DNA of 64,000 nt from an uncultured Rikenella sp. (GTDB taxonomy: Bacteria > Bacteroidota > Bacteroidia > Bacteroidales > VadinHA17), in NCBI GenBank assembly GCA_964488645.1, contig CAZAVK010000003.1, forward strand, positions 43,145-107,144, in the 5' to 3' direction. The position numbers were made by a program, and so were the translations under genes. The notes below the pieces were generated by a model, which saw only the letters and a list, made by a program, of their open reading frames with translations, did no database searches and was not told the DNA's origin. Numbering within the stretch: position 1 is the first letter of the stretch; the number at the start of each line of letters is the position of its first letter. Below are positions 30,870 through 43,756 of the stretch, piece by piece.

Positions 30870-31235
30870 TTATCCGATCAGTTCTTTTACTTTCTGAACC
30901 AGTTCAGCGTGGTGGAAGGGTTTTGACATCACCGCGTCTGCGCCCAGTTTTCCGGCAATTTTCAGGTAGCTCCCCGGCCCGGCCTTTCCTCCGCCGCTGA
31001 TAGCGATGAAGCGGGTTTGCGGTTTCAGCTCCCTGATTTTCATGATTACGGCAATCCCGTCCTCCTCGGGCATCAGCAAATCGGTTATAACCAGATCAAC
31101 CACAGAGGGTTTGAAGCGTGCCATTGCTTCCCTTCCGTCGGCTGCGGTTATTACGGTATATTTCCGGTTCTCAAATGTCTCCCTCAGCATCTCCCTGAGG
31201 TCGGCATCATCTTCAACAATCATTATTCCCGGCAT
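30870..31235 (-). CDS. single-domain response regulator (receiver only, CheY-like)
   Basis: 121 aa with IMIVEDD, DLVITDLLMPEEDG (phospho-acceptor Asp) and SKPF. There is no output domain. Confidence 0.85.
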   Translation of the reverse strand: MPGIMIVEDDADLREMLRETFENRKYTVITAADGREAMARFKPSVVDLVITDLLMPEEDGIAVIMKIRELKPQTRFIAISGGGKAGPGSYLKIAGKLGADAVMSKPFHHAELVQKVKELIG

Positions 31236-31261
31236 GCTGTACAGTTTTGAACTACTTACAA

Positions 31262-32089
31262 TCAGCTGGCTGTTTCCGTCTCCGTTACTCCCGGCAAAGA
31301 TATCTCAAAGGTTGTTCCTTCACCGGGTACCGAGCTGACACTGACGTTTCCGCCCATCTCCCTGACCAGGTCATTCACCACCGTCAGTCCTATTCCGCTC
31401 CTGTTTCCGTCGCCGGTGGTATAGAATGGTTTGAATATCTGCCGTACGGTTTTCTCATCCATTCCCTTTCCGGTATCCCTGAAGCTGATTCTCACCAGGC
31501 TCTCCGGCTCTTCTCCGGTGGCAGGGCTATTATCCTGTGTAACAGTAACTGTCAGCGTCCCCCCCTTCTCTCTCATGGCCTGTATTGCGTTCAGCATAAT
31601 ATTCAGCATCACCCTGAAGAGCTGTGCCGGCGGCACCATCACTGCTGCCCTGGGTGCCCTGATGTTCCTCCTGATGGTGACTCCCTCGGGGATTGAGGGT
31701 CTGATATGATCTATCGTATCTGCCAGTACTTCCGTAACCTTAACCGGAACTCTCTTTACGGCTGCCTCTTTCCCGAGCTCGAGCAGCTGGGCTGTCAGCT
31801 GTCTGGCGCGGTCAGCCGCGCTGATTATGCGGCGTATGTTCTCTTCCGTCTTCTCTGTGTCGCCGAGGGTTTCCAGGGCCATTCCGCCATAGCCGTATAT
31901 CAGTGTAAGCACCGAGTTGAGATCATGTGCAATTCCTCCGGCCAGTGCGCCTACCCTGGTATCCGGTGCCGGCCTGTTTTTTGCCGTTCCCGGACCAGTG
32001 GCTGATGAGTCTGTTCCCATATCTGTTACCTGTTTCATAAAGGGTTCTCTCTTTTGCTTCCCGGGAGGCGGTTCATCATATTCCCGCAC
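31262..32089 (-). CDS. sensor-less histidine kinase (HisKA plus HATPase_c only)
   Basis: H-box GGIAHDLNSVL, N-box MLNIMLNAIQAM, and G-boxes FRDTGKGM and GIGLTVV. The region upstream of the H-box is only about 50 aa and has no TM segment. The start could instead be the internal M18. Confidence 0.8.
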   Translation of the reverse strand: MREYDEPPPGKQKREPFMKQVTDMGTDSSATGPGTAKNRPAPDTRVGALAGGIAHDLNSVLTLIYGYGGMALETLGDTEKTEENIRRIISAADRARQLTAQLLELGKEAAVKRVPVKVTEVLADTIDHIRPSIPEGVTIRRNIRAPRAAVMVPPAQLFRVMLNIMLNAIQAMREKGGTLTVTVTQDNSPATGEEPESLVRISFRDTGKGMDEKTVRQIFKPFYTTGDGNRSGIGLTVVNDLVREMGGNVSVSSVPGEGTTFEISLPGVTETETAS

Positions 32090-32117
32090 TGGTACTCATT
32101 CCGCTTCAGCCGCGGGA

Positions 32118-33884
32118 TTATTCAAAATCAAGATTGAAGGTTCGTTTCAGTTCCTTCAGCGAGGGGTTCCTTGCGGCCAGATGGTTGAACTTCTGCTCGG
32201 GAGAATAGAGGATCTCGTTCCGTTCGGTTGGCTCGACCGTTGTTTTCAGTTTAATATAGCCATTCTCCAGTGACTGTCGCAGATGGTTCTCGAGTGGCTG
32301 CCGGAAAGTCTGGTCTATTGTCTCCTTGAGGGTAAGGTTGTCAAGTCTGACCTGTATGGTTCCATCAGGCTCTGCTTCCGGTCTGACCGACCGCAGTGCA
32401 TTGGCTATCCTGGGGCTCTCTTCCATGATCTCTTCCGCGAAGCTTATCCACGCGGCATCGAGCTCTTCTGCAGTGAACTCGCGGCGGGGGATCTCCTGTA
32501 TTGTTTCAGGCGGCGGCTCTGACACCTTCTCCTCCTCCCTTGCATTACCGCTGATCACCTTTCTGATGGAGATCTTTGCCGGTTCATCTGCCGCGGGCGT
32601 TGTCCGTGGCGGGGTCTGGCGGGTGGTCTGTGCCGGCTGCTCCGCTGCTGATACCGGCAGTTGCATATCAGGAGCTGCGGCAGCCGGCCCCTGTGTAGTG
32701 CCTGTACCGGGCGGACCCGCCACAGGGTAATCGCTTTCTGTGGTCAGCGGCCGCTGCTCAGCTTTTTTTTTTGGTTCCTCCCCTGCGGCCCGGCCAGATA
32801 GATTGCACAAGCGAAGCAGGGCCAGCTCAACATGGAGCCGCTGGTTCTTGCTGGCACGGAAATTCAGGAGGCAGTGTGACCCGATATCGAGTGCCCCGTA
32901 GATAAAGGGAAGCGGTGAGACGGCAGCCTGCCTGGCATAGCGCTGCCTGATCAGCGGAGAGGTCTCAAGCAGCCTGACCGTCACCTCATCACGGCTCACC
33001 AGCAGGTCTCGCATATGGCTGTTGAGCCCCGCCATGAAGTTATAGCCATCGAATCCCTTGTTCAGTATCTCATTGTAAGTGAGCAACACCGACGACACAT
33101 CTCCCTCCAGCGCTGCATCAACTATGCGGAAATAGTACTCATAGTCAAGTACATTTAGATTGGTGATCACATCGGCATAAGTGATGCTCCTGCCGCTGAA
33201 ACTGACTATCTGGTCGAAGATCGACAGGGCATCGCGCATGGCGCCGTCAGCCTTGGTTGCAATCACGTGCAGTGCCTCATGCTCGGCGGTAACACCCTCA
33301 TTGCCCGCCACCCAGCTCAGCCTGGCTACGATATCATCGACGCCGATGCGGTTGAAGTCGAAGATCTGGCAACGCGAAAGGATTGTGGGAATTATCTTGT
33401 GCTTCTCGGTGGTGGCCAGGATGAATATAACGTGGGCGGGAGGCTCCTCAAGTGTCTTGAGAAATGCATTGAAAGCCGACGGCGACAACATATGCACCTC
33501 ATCGATGATGTAGACACTGTACTTGCCTATCTGTGGCGGTATCCGCACCTGGTCAGTCAGGTTGCGTATATCATCAACGCTGTTGTTGGAGGCAGCATCA
33601 AGCTCATGTATATTGAATGATGCCTGTGAGTTGAATGAGGTGCATGACTCGCACTTGTCACATGGTTCGCCCTCCGGAGAGATATCCGAACAGTTGATCG
33701 TCTTGGCAAAAATACGGGCGCAGGTGGTCTTCCCCACTCCCCTCGGCCCGCAGAAAAGATACGCCTGGGCAAGCATGTTGTTCCTGATGGCATTCTTCAG
33801 GGTGGTGGTAATGGTGTCCTGTCCCACCACCATATCAAAGGTTGCAGGCCTGTATTTGCGGGCAGAAACAATAAAATTATCCAT
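32118..33884 (-). CDS. dnaX: DNA polymerase III subunit tau (dnaX); a possible gamma product from slippage at codons 371-374
   Basis: GPRGVGKTT, the Zn module CDKCESC, IIDEVHML and SRCQ, followed by a Pro/Thr/Ala-rich linker and a tau C-terminus. Confidence 0.95.
   Translation of the reverse strand: MDNFIVSARKYRPATFDMVVGQDTITTTLKNAIRNNMLAQAYLFCGPRGVGKTTCARIFAKTINCSDISPEGEPCDKCESCTSFNSQASFNIHELDAASNNSVDDIRNLTDQVRIPPQIGKYSVYIIDEVHMLSPSAFNAFLKTLEEPPAHVIFILATTEKHKIIPTILSRCQIFDFNRIGVDDIVARLSWVAGNEGVTAEHEALHVIATKADGAMRDALSIFDQIVSFSGRSITYADVITNLNVLDYEYYFRIVDAALEGDVSSVLLTYNEILNKGFDGYNFMAGLNSHMRDLLVSRDEVTVRLLETSPLIRQRYARQAAVSPLPFIYGALDIGSHCLLNFRASKNQRLHVELALLRLCNLSGRAAGEEPKKKAEQRPLTTESDYPVAGPPGTGTTQGPAAAAPDMQLPVSAAEQPAQTTRQTPPRTTPAADEPAKISIRKVISGNAREEEKVSEPPPETIQEIPRREFTAEELDAAWISFAEEIMEESPRIANALRSVRPEAEPDGTIQVRLDNLTLKETIDQTFRQPLENHLRQSLENGYIKLKTTVEPTERNEILYSPEQKFNHLAARNPSLKELKRTFNLDFE
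32763..32772 (-). other. A10 slippery run in dnaX (CCA AAA AAA AAA GCU GAG); candidate -1 frameshift or transcriptional slippage site
   Basis: T10 on the plus strand at 32763-32772. The -1 frame reads AAA AAA AAA AGC UGA. The site lies directly after clamp-loader domain III. Confidence 0.5.
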
Positions 33885-33918
33885 ACCGGGTTAAACAGTA
33901 ATATAGAGATACAGGAGA

Positions 33919-33926
33919 CAAATATA
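33919..33926 (-). promoter_or_regulatory. -7 promoter box TAnnTTTG (TATATTTG) for dnaX
   Basis: Plus-strand caaatata is the reverse complement of TATATTTG. It lies 35 nt upstream of ATG 33884. Confidence 0.5.
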
Positions 33927-33969
33927 GTCAAATAGTTTTCCTAATATTTTTTTTGAAAATTAATTGTCT

Positions 33970-33977
33970 TACTTTTG
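33970..33977 (+). promoter_or_regulatory. -7 promoter box TAnnTTTG (TACTTTTG) for rpsF-rpsR-rplI
   Basis: An exact match, 40 nt upstream of ATG 34017. A T-rich stretch with TTTG sits upstream at 33952-33955. Confidence 0.6.
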
Positions 33978-34016
33978 CAACCCGATTTAATCAAACCAAA
34001 TTAAACCAATTAAGAG

Positions 34017-34370
34017 ATGTTGAATCAGTACGAAACCGTTTTCATTGCAACTCCCGTTTTGTCTGAGAATCAGATGAAGGAAGCGGTTCAGAAGTTCAAG
34101 AAGATCATCACTGACAACGAAGGTGAGATTGTTCATGAAGAGAACTGGGGTCTGAAGAAACTCGCTTATCCAATTCAGAAGAAGTCGACCGGGTTTTATT
34201 ACCTGGTTGAGTTCCGCGGGCCGGGTGAGCTGGTAGACAAACTGGAAGTTCAGTACAGGAGGGATGAGAGGATCATCCGCTTCCTGACATTCCGTATGGA
34301 CAAGTATGCCATTGAGTATGCTGAGAGGAAAAGAAAAATGAAGGAAACCGAAAAAGTCAGTGAGGAGTAG
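34017..34370 (+). CDS. rpsF: 30S ribosomal protein S6
   Basis: [13 protein letters not shown]...[10 protein letters not shown]; sits in rpsF-rpsR-rplI order. Confidence 0.95.
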
Positions 34371-34372
34371 TT

Positions 34373-34642
34373 ATGGCACAGGGAAATTCAGAAATCAGGT
34401 ACCTGACACCGCCGACAGTAGAGATCAAGAAGAAGAAGTACTGCAGGTTCAGGAAGAACAAGATCAAGTATATTGACTACAAGGATCCGGAGTTTCTAAA
34501 GAAGTTTCTCAATGAGCAGGGGAAGATTCTTCCGCGCCGTCTCACCGGCACCTCGCTCAAGTACCAGAGGCGTGTTGCCAGGGCTATCAAGCGCTCGCGC
34601 CATCTTGCGATGCTTCCTTATGTTGCTGACCTTTTAAAGTAG
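34373..34642 (+). CDS. rpsR: 30S ribosomal protein S18
   Basis: [18 protein letters not shown]...ILPRRLTG...[19 protein letters not shown]. Confidence 0.95.
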
Positions 34643-34655
34643 TGGAGGAGAAGAG

Positions 34656-35102
34656 ATGAAGGTTATATTAAGGCAGGATATAGAGAAGCTGGGACAGAAA
34701 GACGATGTGGTCACTGTCAGGACAGGTTATGCACGGAACTATCTTATCCCCAGGGGTTACGCTGTTCAGGCCACCGATTCGGCCATAAAGGTTCACAATG
34801 AGAACCTGCGTCAGCGTGCCCATAAGGAGGCGAAGATCAGGCAGGAGGCTGAGGATCTGGCAGCCAGGCTGGCCGATGTGAAGCTGGTCATAGGTGCCAA
34901 GGTTAGCTCGGCAGGAAAGATCTTCGGGTCGGTCAACACCATTCAACTGGCTGAAGCATTCAGCTCAAAGGGTTTTGAGATTGACCGCAAGAACATCATC
35001 CTCGGTGAGGAGGCTATCAAGGAGACGGGCAGCTACAAGGCCGTTGTCAGGCTTCACCGCGAGGTTAAGGTTGAGGTGGAGTTTGACGTTGTCGCCGAAT
35101 AG
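34656..35102 (+). CDS. rplI: 50S ribosomal protein L9
   Basis: MKVILRQDIEKLGQKDDVVTVRTGYARNYLIP. Confidence 0.95.
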   Translation: MKVILRQDIEKLGQKDDVVTVRTGYARNYLIPRGYAVQATDSAIKVHNENLRQRAHKEAKIRQEAEDLAARLADVKLVIGAKVSSAGKIFGSVNTIQLAEAFSSKGFEIDRKNIILGEEAIKETGSYKAVVRLHREVKVEVEFDVVAE

Positions 35103-41156: not shown

Positions 41157-42590
41157 ATGAGCAAATCACACGAGGAGGTTTGGAATAACTGTCTGGAAAT
41201 AATCCGTGATATTATTCCCTCAGCCAGTTATAAAACCTGGTTTGAGCCTATTGTCCCCCTCAGGCTTGAGAAGAACGTCCTGACCATTCAGGTTCCTTCC
41301 CCTTTTTTCTATGAGTATCTTGAGGAGCAGTACATTGATATTCTCCGCAAGACTCTCAGGCGCGAGATAGGCAATGATGCCAAGCTTGAGTACAACATCA
41401 TCATGGAGAATACGGGCTATGCCAGTGACAAGGGCTTCACCACGCTCAAGTTTCCCTCGCAGAACAAGACCAATCTTCAGAACAAGCCGGTACAGGTTCC
41501 TTTTGAGGCAGCCCGCCCGGCCATCAGGAATCCCTTTATCATCCCGGGCATCAAGAAGCTTCATTTTGATCCGAGGCTCAATCCCGACTACTCTTTTGCC
41601 AACTTTGTGGAGGGTGAGTGCAACCGTCTTGCCCGTTCAGCCGGTATTGCGGTTGGAAGCAATCCTGGTGGCACTGCCTTCAATCCGCTTATGATCTACG
41701 GTGATTCAGGTCTCGGAAAGACTCACCTGGCGCAGGCTATCGGCATCCTTGTCAAGGAGAAGCATCCTGACAAGACCGTCCTCTATGTCAATGCCAACAA
41801 GTTCCAGATGCAGTTTGTAGAGTCGGTCCGGAACAATAACAAGAACGACTTCCTCCATTTCTACCAGATGATCGATGTGCTGATCATTGATGACGTTCAT
41901 GAGTTTGCCGGCAAGGAGAAGACCCAGGACACCTTTTTCCACATCTTCAATCACCTGCATCAGTCGGGCAAGCAGCTTATCATCACCTGTGACAAGCCCC
42001 CGGTAGAGCTGCAGGGGATGGAGCAACGCCTTCTCTCGCGGTTCAAGTGGGGCCTTCTGGCCGATCTTCAGAAGCCTGACTATGAGACCCGGCTGGCCAT
42101 ACTGCGGAAGAAGGCCTACAATGACGGCATTGAGCTTCCTGACGAGATCTTTGAGTTCCTGGCAGAGAATATTTCATCCAACATACGTGAACTGGAATCG
42201 GGGCTTATCTCGCTCTATGCCCAGTCAACCCTTAACCGCAAGGAGGTGACCCTGGAGCTGGCACGCCAGATGGTAGACAGGCTGGTGAACACGCAACGCC
42301 GTGAGATCACCATCGACTATATCCAGAAGGTTGTATGTGATTACTACAAGATACCGGTAGAACAGATCCAGAGCAAGACCCGCAAGCGTGAGATAGTGCA
42401 GGCGAGGCAGGTCTCCATGTATTTTTCAAAGAGTCTCACCAAGGCATCGCTTGCCAGTATCGGATCAGCCATCGGCGGCAAGGATCACGCCACCGTGCTG
42501 CATGCCTGCAAGACAGTCAACAACCTCATTGATACTGACCGTCACTTCAGGCATCAGATCATGGAGATAGAAAAAAAACTCAAGGTATGA
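41157..42590 (+). CDS. dnaA: chromosomal replication initiator protein DnaA
   Basis: FNPLMIYGDSGLGKTHL (Walker A), IIDDVH, and the C-terminal DNA-binding domain (RKREIVQARQVSMYF...IGGKDHATVLHA). Confidence 0.95.
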   Translation: MSKSHEEVWNNCLEIIRDIIPSASYKTWFEPIVPLRLEKNVLTIQVPSPFFYEYLEEQYIDILRKTLRREIGNDAKLEYNIIMENTGYASDKGFTTLKFPSQNKTNLQNKPVQVPFEAARPAIRNPFIIPGIKKLHFDPRLNPDYSFANFVEGECNRLARSAGIAVGSNPGGTAFNPLMIYGDSGLGKTHLAQAIGILVKEKHPDKTVLYVNANKFQMQFVESVRNNNKNDFLHFYQMIDVLIIDDVHEFAGKEKTQDTFFHIFNHLHQSGKQLIITCDKPPVELQGMEQRLLSRFKWGLLADLQKPDYETRLAILRKKAYNDGIELPDEIFEFLAENISSNIRELESGLISLYAQSTLNRKEVTLELARQMVDRLVNTQRREITIDYIQKVVCDYYKIPVEQIQSKTRKREIVQARQVSMYFSKSLTKASLASIGSAIGGKDHATVLHACKTVNNLIDTDRHFRHQIMEIEKKLKV

Positions 42591-43756
42591 ACCATCAGAT
42601 CAGTCAGCTGAAAGAGCAGTTTTTCAGGATGTACGGGGACAAGGCGGGAGAGCCTGTCCTTTTTTTTTCTCCCGGCAGGGTAAACCTCATCGGTGAGCAC
42701 ACTGACTACAACAACGGCTATGTCTTTCCCTGTGCCCTCGACTACGGCACCTACCTGCTTATCCGCCGGTCAGCCGGCAACACCATCCGTCTCAGCAGCC
42801 TCAACTTCCCGGGCGAGGTGGTTGTATCAGCTGCTTCACCGTTCACCCCGTTGCCGGGCAGCTGGACCAACTACCCGGTGGGGGTTATCAATGAGTTCGC
42901 ACTCAAGGGCATAGCTGCGCCGGGGCTCGAGCTCCTCTTCATGGGCAACATACCCAACGGGGCAGGCCTCTCATCATCCGCCTCGATAGAGATGGTCACC
43001 GCGGTGGCGCTGAATGAGATCACCGGTGCCGGGCTGCCCATGATGGAGATGGTCCTGATGAGCCAGCATGCAGAGAACCATTTCGTCGGAATGAACTGCG
43101 GCATCATGGATCAGTTCGCGGTGGGTTTCGGAAAGAGGGATCATGCCATCAGCCTCAACTGCGACACTCTTGATTATGAGTATGCGCCCCTGATGCTGGG
43201 TGACCGCAGGCTGATCATCACCAACACCAACAAGCGCAGGGGGCTCACCGACTCGAAGTACAATGAGCGCAGGGCAGAGTGTGACATGGCGGTGAAGATC
43301 ATTTCGGCCCGCCGGCCGCTGCGCCACCTGAGTGAGCTGACAGATGATGATCTGCCAATGGTTGAGCGGCTCATCACCGACCCGGTCATACTACGCAGGG
43401 CAAGGCATGTCATCACCGAGAACGGAAGGACCCTGAAGGCAATCACTGCTCTCAGGAACAATGACATAGCTGGTTTCGGAAAGCTCATGAACGCCTCTCA
43501 TGACTCGCTGCGCGATGATTATGAGGTGACAGGTCATGAACTCGATACCCTGGTTTATGAAGGCCGCCGGCTGCCGGGGGTCATCGGCACCAGGATGACC
43601 GGGGCAGGGTTCGGCGGGTGCACTGTCTCAATCGTGGAGGCGGAGCATGCAGAGGGGTTCATGAAGGAACTGGGGGCATTGTACAGTTCGAAGACAGGAC
43701 TGGCCGCAGAGTTCTACCTGCCGGCTGTCGGCGGGGGCGCCGGGAAGATCGGATAA
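42587..43756 (+). CDS. galK: galactokinase
   Basis: PGRVNLIGEHTDYN and PNGAGLSSSAS are GHMP kinase motifs, followed by GAGFGGC. ATGA overlap with the dnaA stop codon. Confidence 0.9.
   Translation: MNHQISQLKEQFFRMYGDKAGEPVLFFSPGRVNLIGEHTDYNNGYVFPCALDYGTYLLIRRSAGNTIRLSSLNFPGEVVVSAASPFTPLPGSWTNYPVGVINEFALKGIAAPGLELLFMGNIPNGAGLSSSASIEMVTAVALNEITGAGLPMMEMVLMSQHAENHFVGMNCGIMDQFAVGFGKRDHAISLNCDTLDYEYAPLMLGDRRLIITNTNKRRGLTDSKYNERRAECDMAVKIISARRPLRHLSELTDDDLPMVERLITDPVILRRARHVITENGRTLKAITALRNNDIAGFGKLMNASHDSLRDDYEVTGHELDTLVYEGRRLPGVIGTRMTGAGFGGCTVSIVEAEHAEGFMKELGALYSSKTGLAAEFYLPAVGGGAGKIG

Follow-up and report, generated by a model that had tools for sequence, protein, structure and literature searches.

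At the center of this analysis is the dnaX gene of an uncultured Rikenella sp. (Bacteroidota), found on the minus strand of a 64,000-nucleotide stretch of contig CAZAVK010000003.1 that will be called the window. The gene is a single open reading frame (ORF) of 588 codons (32118..33884, minus strand), whose zero frame encodes a full-length tau of 588 aa and 65.5 kDa. Its product matches the Pfam families DNA_pol3_delta2, AAA, DNAX_ATPase_lid and DNA_pol3_gamma3, aligns with the E. coli DnaX structures (E = 1e-66) and is present as an identical sequence (P0001) in a public protein collection. Clamp-loader domain III, the last domain common to gamma and tau, is located at 32793..33176 on the minus strand (PF12169, aa 237-364), and the alignment with the crystallized E. 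coli gamma core constructs (residues 1-373) stops at aa 368 of the query. The tau-specific part (32118..32762, minus strand, zero-frame translation) consists of a Pro/Thr/Ala-rich linker and a C-terminal domain; the C-terminal part of the DnaX of relatives has a precomputed match to PF28557. Gamma and tau confer different properties on the clamp loader, and only tau tethers polymerase and helicase.

Seven codons past domain III, the end of which falls at aa 364-368, the coding (minus) strand reads GAG GAA CCA AAA AAA AAA GCT GAG CAG CGG CCG CTG. It contains a slippery run of ten A's (A10; T10 on the template) located at 32763..32772, which begins with the third base of codon 371 and extends to the end of codon 374. 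The original prediction had placed this run at the gamma/tau branch point of dnaX, and had claimed that a -1 slip or one added A would lead to KKK-Ser-stop and to a product of about 375 aa ending just past domain III, while the zero frame runs on into the linker and the tau C-terminus. Sequence, coordinates and codons were all confirmed. The -1 frame reads AAA AAA AAA AGC TGA (KKKS-stop), with its TGA at 32758..32760 (minus strand), one codon past the run. The predicted product, gamma, has 375 aa (...EEPKKKS, 41.7 kDa), either from an A11 transcript or from a -1 ribosomal slip, and it ends shortly after both the Pfam match (aa 364) and the E. coli alignment (aa 368); the uninterrupted zero frame gives the 588 aa of tau. 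The prediction had considered the -1 frame only. To it we can add the +1 frame, which ends at a second TGA (32744..32746, minus strand) five codons past the run (KKKLSSGR-stop) and would give a gamma' of 379 aa (...EEPKKKLSSGR, 42.1 kDa) from A9 transcripts or of 380 aa from A12. The distance from the run to the end of the stop is 5 nt in the -1 frame and 19 nt in the +1 frame. When transcripts of different run length were simulated, A10 and A13 gave tau of 588 and 589 aa (65.5 kDa), A11 and A8 gave products of 375 and 374 aa (41.7 kDa), and A9 and A12 gave products of 379 and 380 aa (42.1 kDa). The A10 run and the truncating frames that follow it in dnaX are real.

This A10 is the longest homopolymer of the window, where base composition predicts about 0.05 A10 or T10 runs per 64 kb. 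Among the window runs of at least 8 nt no other is found deep within a long ORF, the seven others being intergenic or at most about 80 nt from an ORF end. The second longest, a T9 at 42660..42668 (within 42645..42683, plus strand), is flanked by an inverted repeat CGGGAG...CTCCCG and located at the junction of the ORFs 41157..42590 and 42587..43756. It may represent a hairpin or terminator-like element, or indicate a mis-set start. As to the A10 run, chance was rejected because the comparative evidence is decisive.

For this comparison we collected 80 dnaX loci from species-representative genomes and 80 from metagenomes, all of them from Bacteroidota (orders Bacteroidales, Flavobacteriales, Sphingobacteriales, Cytophagales and Chitinophagales). 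Most were 40-55% identical to the window dnaX overall, and at most about 70% in the N-terminal part. Ten closer relatives (L161-L170, about 68-75% identical) were looked up singly from the nearest protein clusters. A run of A9 or longer was sought in the 50-codon stretch past domain III (codons ~350-387), for which 155 loci were long enough to be assessed. A run of A9 to A13 was present at the gamma/tau boundary in 106 of these 155 loci, and its length was ten in 85 of them (A11 in 11, A9 in eight, A12 and A13 in one each). In codons 1-330 of the same genes, which add up to 104,878 nt, runs of A8 or longer numbered only four. Seven of the ten close relatives carried A10, two A11 and one A12; in nine of the ten the -1 stop was found one codon past the run, and the +1 stop came 3-12 codons on. 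The combination of A10 with a zero-frame tau, exactly as in the window, was present in seven. The comparison that had been proposed beforehand thus showed a joint conservation of the A-run and of the alternative-frame stops across Bacteroidota, the run being present in 106 of the 155 loci and in 10 of 10 close relatives. One Bacteroidetes metagenome-assembled genome (L008) has its A10 displaced about 85 codons downstream, at codon ~454 (acgAAAAAAAAAAcaataatcctgtaga), with TAA and TAG in two different frames at most 14 nt past the run; gamma would be longer there.

It could be argued that no recoding takes place, the run simply encoding a patch rich in Lys where the tau linker begins, or being just neutral low complexity, and the off-frame stops being incidental. 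In the nearest 120 protein clusters (68-100% identical) KKK is present at this position in 120 out of 120, within a linker that is otherwise variable and charged, and AAA is the preferred Lys codon (72% of the Lys codons upstream in the same genes). However, AAG makes up 28% of those upstream codons and the tract itself is never broken by a G. Besides, the run starts in codon phase 0 in 18 loci, phase 1 in 58 and phase 2 in 30, so the encoded peptide differs by lineage and is not the conserved thing. Protein-level selection for KKK would not produce a run in all three phases and was rejected on this ground. Long A runs are, as shown above, otherwise almost absent from these genes. The bases flanking the run have an information content near zero on both sides across the phylum, with 105 distinct flank contexts among the run-bearing loci.

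The frames that follow the run are arranged in a regular way. Past the run a single frame remains open over more than 550 nt, and the other two close after 3-47 nt (median 9); this holds for 105 of the 106 loci. In 90% of the single-ORF genes (n=84) a stop is reached within 24 nt in both alternative frames, compared with 17% at random positions of the same genes. The median distance from the run to closure is 6 nt for the -1 frame (background 26 nt) and 15.5 nt for the +1 frame (background 35 nt). Compared to the gene's own median, the -1 stop was nearer in 82 of 84 genes (sign test, p = 4e-22) and the +1 stop in 79 of 84 (p = 3e-18), although the 106 loci are phylogenetically related and these p-values overstate their independence. 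There are three interchangeable ARRANGEMENTS, with tau in the zero frame (83 loci), in the -1 frame (18) or in the +1 frame (4). Pedobacter, Mucilaginibacter, Aequorivita and Chitinophaga terrae are among the carriers of the single-ORF arrangement. In the two-ORF loci (n=22) the zero-frame ORF ends 3-19 nt past the run, and in 20 of them the alternative frame is homologous to the tau-specific part of the window dnaX, namely to its C-terminus (blastp E 1e-4 to 1e-13); the remaining two (L025 and L150) lie on contigs that break off no more than about 80 codons from the run. In the two-ORF genomes it is gamma that standard decoding gives, and a shift is required for tau. The nearest relatives in the genome collection differ from the window in this respect, since Sunxiuqinia (L017) and a member of Prolixibacteraceae (L027) have tau in the -1 frame and L022 in the +1 frame. 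Both off-frames close far sooner than background, and in 22 loci the zero frame stops while tau continues elsewhere, which would be senseless without recoding. We regard an explanation that does without it as very improbable.

The variation in run length among relatives (A9 to A13) brings in another explanation, a contingency tract acting at the level of DNA, in which replication slippage would switch between a tau and a gamma-only phase, or simply a sequencing error in the run length of this assembly. Homopolymers are indeed mutable and error-prone in assemblies, and slippage during replication is not always distinguishable from slippage during transcription (Baranov et al., PMC1088944). However, exactly one frame still encodes tau at the other run lengths, and seven of the ten close relatives share A10 with a zero-frame tau. 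That the frames have been re-adjusted at other lengths, with one still encoding tau, points to long-term selection on a fixed arrangement and not to switching. Moreover, tau is essential, and a gamma-only genotype would be lethal and offer no usable phase. Phase variation at the level of DNA was therefore rejected, and of all the explanations considered here this one appears to us the least credible.

Taken together, the run, the two near stops and the location past domain III are conserved throughout the phylum in three arrangements. The core of the original prediction, that A10 yields a truncated DnaX of about 375 aa by a slip of polymerase or ribosome, is supported by these sequence comparisons. 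The interpretation that we favor, with a probability of roughly 0.7, is that A10 serves as a programmed branch point between gamma and tau, with transcriptional slippage (realignment) as its main mode of action. RNA polymerase copying the T10 template would form an A-only RNA:DNA hybrid able to shift register without loss of base pairs, so that the mRNA pool would become a mixture of A9, A10, A11, A12 and so on. The transcripts with A10, or with A10 plus or minus three, would give tau (588 aa plus or minus one Lys) by normal translation. On A11 transcripts ordinary ribosomes would meet AGC-UGA and release gamma (375 aa), while A9 or A12 transcripts would lead to ...LSSGR-stop and gamma' (379 or 380 aa). 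The short products would retain clamp-loader domains I-III without the linker or the C-terminal part; judging from E. coli tau, the latter would bind the polymerase and the helicase. We infer that RNA polymerase slips rather than the ribosome, that both products accumulate and that they do so in a certain ratio.

The main competitor is a -1 programmed ribosomal frameshift of the E. coli type, in which the ribosome would slip on A_AAA_AAA and stop at AGC-UGA on a homogeneous mRNA. From sequence neither the polymerase nor the ribosome route can be proved, and the evidence leans to RNA polymerase. To start with, ten A's are conserved where the X_XXY_YYZ motif of the ribosomal route needs only seven. 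In many genomes selection against slippage-prone runs becomes evident from about 9 nt (PMC1088944). The +1 frame is closed, and this closure is conserved, something that a pure -1 frameshift does not require but that is expected if transcripts with one A deleted or two inserted exist. Tau is found in the +1 frame (in four lineages) as well as in the -1 frame, and the presence of both shift directions in one cluster was used as a criterion for transcriptional realignment by (Antonov et al., 2013; PMC3711429). The absence of AAG from the site also favors RNA polymerase. The window has no in-phase A_AAA_AAG, since GCU follows the run and only A_AAA_AAA heptamers are available, and in E. coli A_AAA_AAA is much less shift-prone than A_AAA_AAG (PMC5009743).

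The lack of conserved stimulators, either in the flanks or as folds, argues in the same direction. Two elements downstream of the run had been pointed out in the original prediction, the GC-rich palindrome CAGCGGCCGCTG (32745..32756, minus strand) and a CCACAG...CTGTGG stem (32738..32743 with 32720..32725, minus strand). Both are present, but their role as 3' stimulators found no support and was rejected. The palindrome permits a stem of 4 bp at most, folding of the 70 nt downstream did not differ significantly from shuffled sequences (z = -0.75), and neither element was found in the ten close relatives, where no consistent structure or z-score was apparent. For the 60 nt upstream z was +0.38, and for a 140-nt segment across the run it was +0.22. 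A hairpin upstream of the run, of the type known from insertion sequence (IS) elements, was likewise rejected on account of the upstream value and the lack of a consistent structure in the relatives.

A linear likeness to the E. coli site (GCAGGgGAGgAACCAAAA) is striking and includes a Shine-Dalgarno-like GGGGAGG at 32777..32783 (minus strand), 4 nt upstream of the run. The Rfam model DnaX (RF00382) matches the window at 32742..32787 (minus strand) with 18.7 bits against a gathering score of 35 (E = 0.04-0.1). Actually, most of this match corresponds to the linear 5' part (GCAGGGAG..AACCAAAA), of which GGGGAGG is a component, with a loop of zero length, and the model found no match in the ten close relatives. 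Three of the four defining features of the family (heptamer, stem-loop and score) are lacking and membership in RF00382 was rejected. At the position of GGGGAGG the close relatives have purine-rich Glu-Glu codons (GAR GAR), and phylum-wide the upstream flank is almost uninformative. The role of GGGGAGG is uncertain, and it is probably nothing but Gly-Glu-Glu codons. Given its absence from the close relatives, the whole likeness to the E. coli site is probably coincidental and due to the Gly-Glu-Glu-Pro-Lys codons. A match below threshold in the window and none in the relatives is one more reason to favor RNA polymerase. Besides, Bacteroidota make little use of Shine-Dalgarno pairing. Of the claim that the site follows an E. 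coli-like or a Thermus-like logic, it is the transcriptional route of Thermus that is favored.

Several observations weigh against transcriptional slippage as the main route and speak for the ribosome. There are A_AAA_AAA heptamers in every phase of A10, and a -1 frameshift, with the same 375-aa product, could contribute. The Shine-Dalgarno-like GGGGAGG and the weak likeness to the E. coli element, even if below threshold, point to the same side. Throughout the phylum the -1 frame shuts sooner than the +1 frame, both the window and nine of the ten close relatives have its stop one codon past the run, and a -1 shift is what most two-ORF cases (18 of 22) require. The ribosome may thus contribute, but as the main route to gamma we judge ribosomal frameshifting unlikely. 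Other points concern the data themselves. The slippage of the host RNA polymerase on A10, as in the rest of Bacteroidota, is something that we infer. Furthermore, some of the two-ORF cases from metagenomes could be homopolymer sequencing errors. However, the two-ORF cases fall into coherent groups (L037/L040/L072 and L146-L148), and complete genomes show this arrangement too (Antonov et al., 2013; PMC3711429).

The run is missing in 49 of the 155 loci, and those from the genome collection are chiefly of the Bacteroidaceae type, with some of the Rikenellaceae type. In two of the loci without A10 (L061 at codon ~377 and L118 at codon ~381) there is an in-phase, E. coli-like A_AAA_AAG with the -1 stop one codon on (KKA* and V*, respectively), and in Pontibacter rugosus (L033, codon ~376) an A7 with KKS* in the -1 frame. 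Four loci of Bacteroides or Bacteroidaceae (L007, L016, L031 and L034) are devoid of run, heptamer or stop. They share the peptide G-R-(S/K)-(S/P)-x3-(I/L)-(K/R/H)-P-(I/V)-F at the position of the A-run, just past domain III, which might be a processing or interaction motif.

The most striking situation, found outside the window in a large clade of Bacteroidales from rumen and gut, is that of loci with an in-frame TAG at the gamma/tau boundary (L048:2788-2790, L069:4099-4101, L077:4102-4104, L171:3629-3631 and L173:3611-3613). The first three have no A-run, and tau carries on in the same frame past the TAG. When the L069 product was searched, the top 120 of 120 clusters (76-99% identical, from rumen and gut Bacteroidales) ended at the TAG boundary. 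L171 and L173 confirmed the TAG, with a downstream ORF in frame that contains the DUF8439 tau C-terminal domain and has a normal tau end. The 3' context is conserved as a linear motif, TAG AT(T/A) GC(A/T) AG(G/A) (AUUGCAAGG; TAG-ATTGCAAGG). A hairpin after the TAG was unsupported, its consensus having four pairs, no covariation and a disruption in L077. In L077 TAG is an ordinary stop, since neighboring ORFs there end in it. This in-frame TAG looks like a candidate for programmed UAG readthrough that would produce tau, a further gamma/tau route, of which our literature search found no report. As a tentative idea, to which we give somewhat less than even odds, A10 could be an ancestral device of Bacteroidota (and Chlorobi) that splits expression near-evenly at the level of the polymerase, and the lineages that lost the run would have rebuilt the branch point in the same place by way of A_AAA_AAG or UAG readthrough. 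If so, tau could move without constraint between the 0, -1 and +1 frames, even inside a single family. In the window the frequency of slippage, and hence the gamma:tau ratio, may respond to nucleotide pools or growth rate.

The surroundings of dnaX (window 30870..35102) contain rpsF-rpsR-rplI upstream, in divergent orientation, and a HisKA/HATPase sensor kinase with a response regulator directly downstream on the same strand. This gene order is kept in L161, L162, L164, L167 and L170 (about 70-75% identical relatives).

How gamma is produced outside Proteobacteria and Thermus, and whether it is, is only patchily known. The single-ORF form is the majority arrangement in the sampled Bacteroidota (83 of the 106 run-bearing loci), and if our interpretation is true a second dnaX product should be annotated in many genomes of the phylum. 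The exact conservation of ten A's would then offer a natural standard against which to calibrate the slippage of RNA polymerase in these bacteria. Since one and the same boundary shows three arrangements of the frames together with an E. coli-type heptamer and an in-frame UAG, the phylum is a good system to study how one recoding mechanism replaces another. The mechanism itself will not surprise a specialist in recoding, who would probably value more the unannotated majority form, the fixed length of ten and the coexistence of several solutions. Our search of the literature found no description of a single-ORF poly-A dnaX in Bacteroidota.

Three routes to gamma have been described, ribosomal frameshifting in E. 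coli, transcriptional slippage in Thermus and proteolysis in Caulobacter. In Caulobacter crescentus gamma is generated by partial ClpXP proteolysis of tau (bioRxiv 10.1101/2022.11.10.516041). Two forms of DnaX come from one gene there as well, but the process is post-translational and has no signal at the nucleotide level; nothing in the window suggests proteolysis. The E. coli site (A_AAA_AAG, Shine-Dalgarno-like element and 3' stem-loop; RF00382) resembles that of the window in that gamma ends at a UGA one codon into the -1 frame, and also in the local sequence (GCAGGGGAGGAACCAAAA...), Shine-Dalgarno-like element included. It differs in that the window lacks AAG, its stem-loop is neither significant nor conserved, the score is 18.7 against 35 and the +1 frame is closed too. 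Besides, the window site is about 60 codons nearer to domain III than the E. coli one.

The likeness to Thermus thermophilus is closer. As described in PMC1088944 and PMC5009743 (work of Larsen et al., 2000), its dnaX carries an A9 run, and both non-zero frames have a stop; slippage has been shown experimentally, and the stops in both frames were already used there as an argument for transcriptional slippage. The two systems have in common that tau is encoded in one zero-frame ORF, that a poly-A run in the sense strand is followed by stops in both non-zero frames, that any change in the number of A's other than a multiple of three leads to gamma, and that flanking stimulators are not needed. 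They differ in run length (A9 there, A10 here) and in phylum, and for the window slippage is a prediction from sequence. The window has an A run of about 9 or more in dnaX, placed between domains I-III and the tau part, near stops in both non-zero frames, and a conservation that is independent of phase and flanks. Judged by every feature that can be tested in sequence, it is of the Thermus type.

Within the phylum group itself, (Antonov et al., 2013; PMC3711429) found 17 dnaX genes made of two ORFs, 12 of them with poly-A and nine of these reported as having ten A's. Among the species listed are Flavobacterium johnsoniae, F. psychrophilum, Cytophaga hutchinsonii, Capnocytophaga ochracea, Chlorobium, Prosthecochloris and Coraliomargarita. 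They predicted programmed transcriptional realignment at the poly-A of dnaX (Supplementary Fig. S3). The phylum group is the same, the site is apparently the same, the run is mostly A10 and the stop is close. However, the slip produces tau in those genes, while in the window tau is made in the zero frame and the slip would make gamma. The zero frame that stops after the run, which defines the two-ORF form, was found in 22 of the related loci and not in the window, where it continues to 588 aa. The method of Antonov et al. depends on a frameshift at the level of DNA, and for this reason they saw the tract in its two-ORF form only. The window arrangement has no such frameshift, and frameshift-finding programs and annotation pipelines pass over it. 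What we describe here is not a new mechanism but the single-ORF form of a known poly-A tract, a direct extension of what had been found in its two-ORF relatives.

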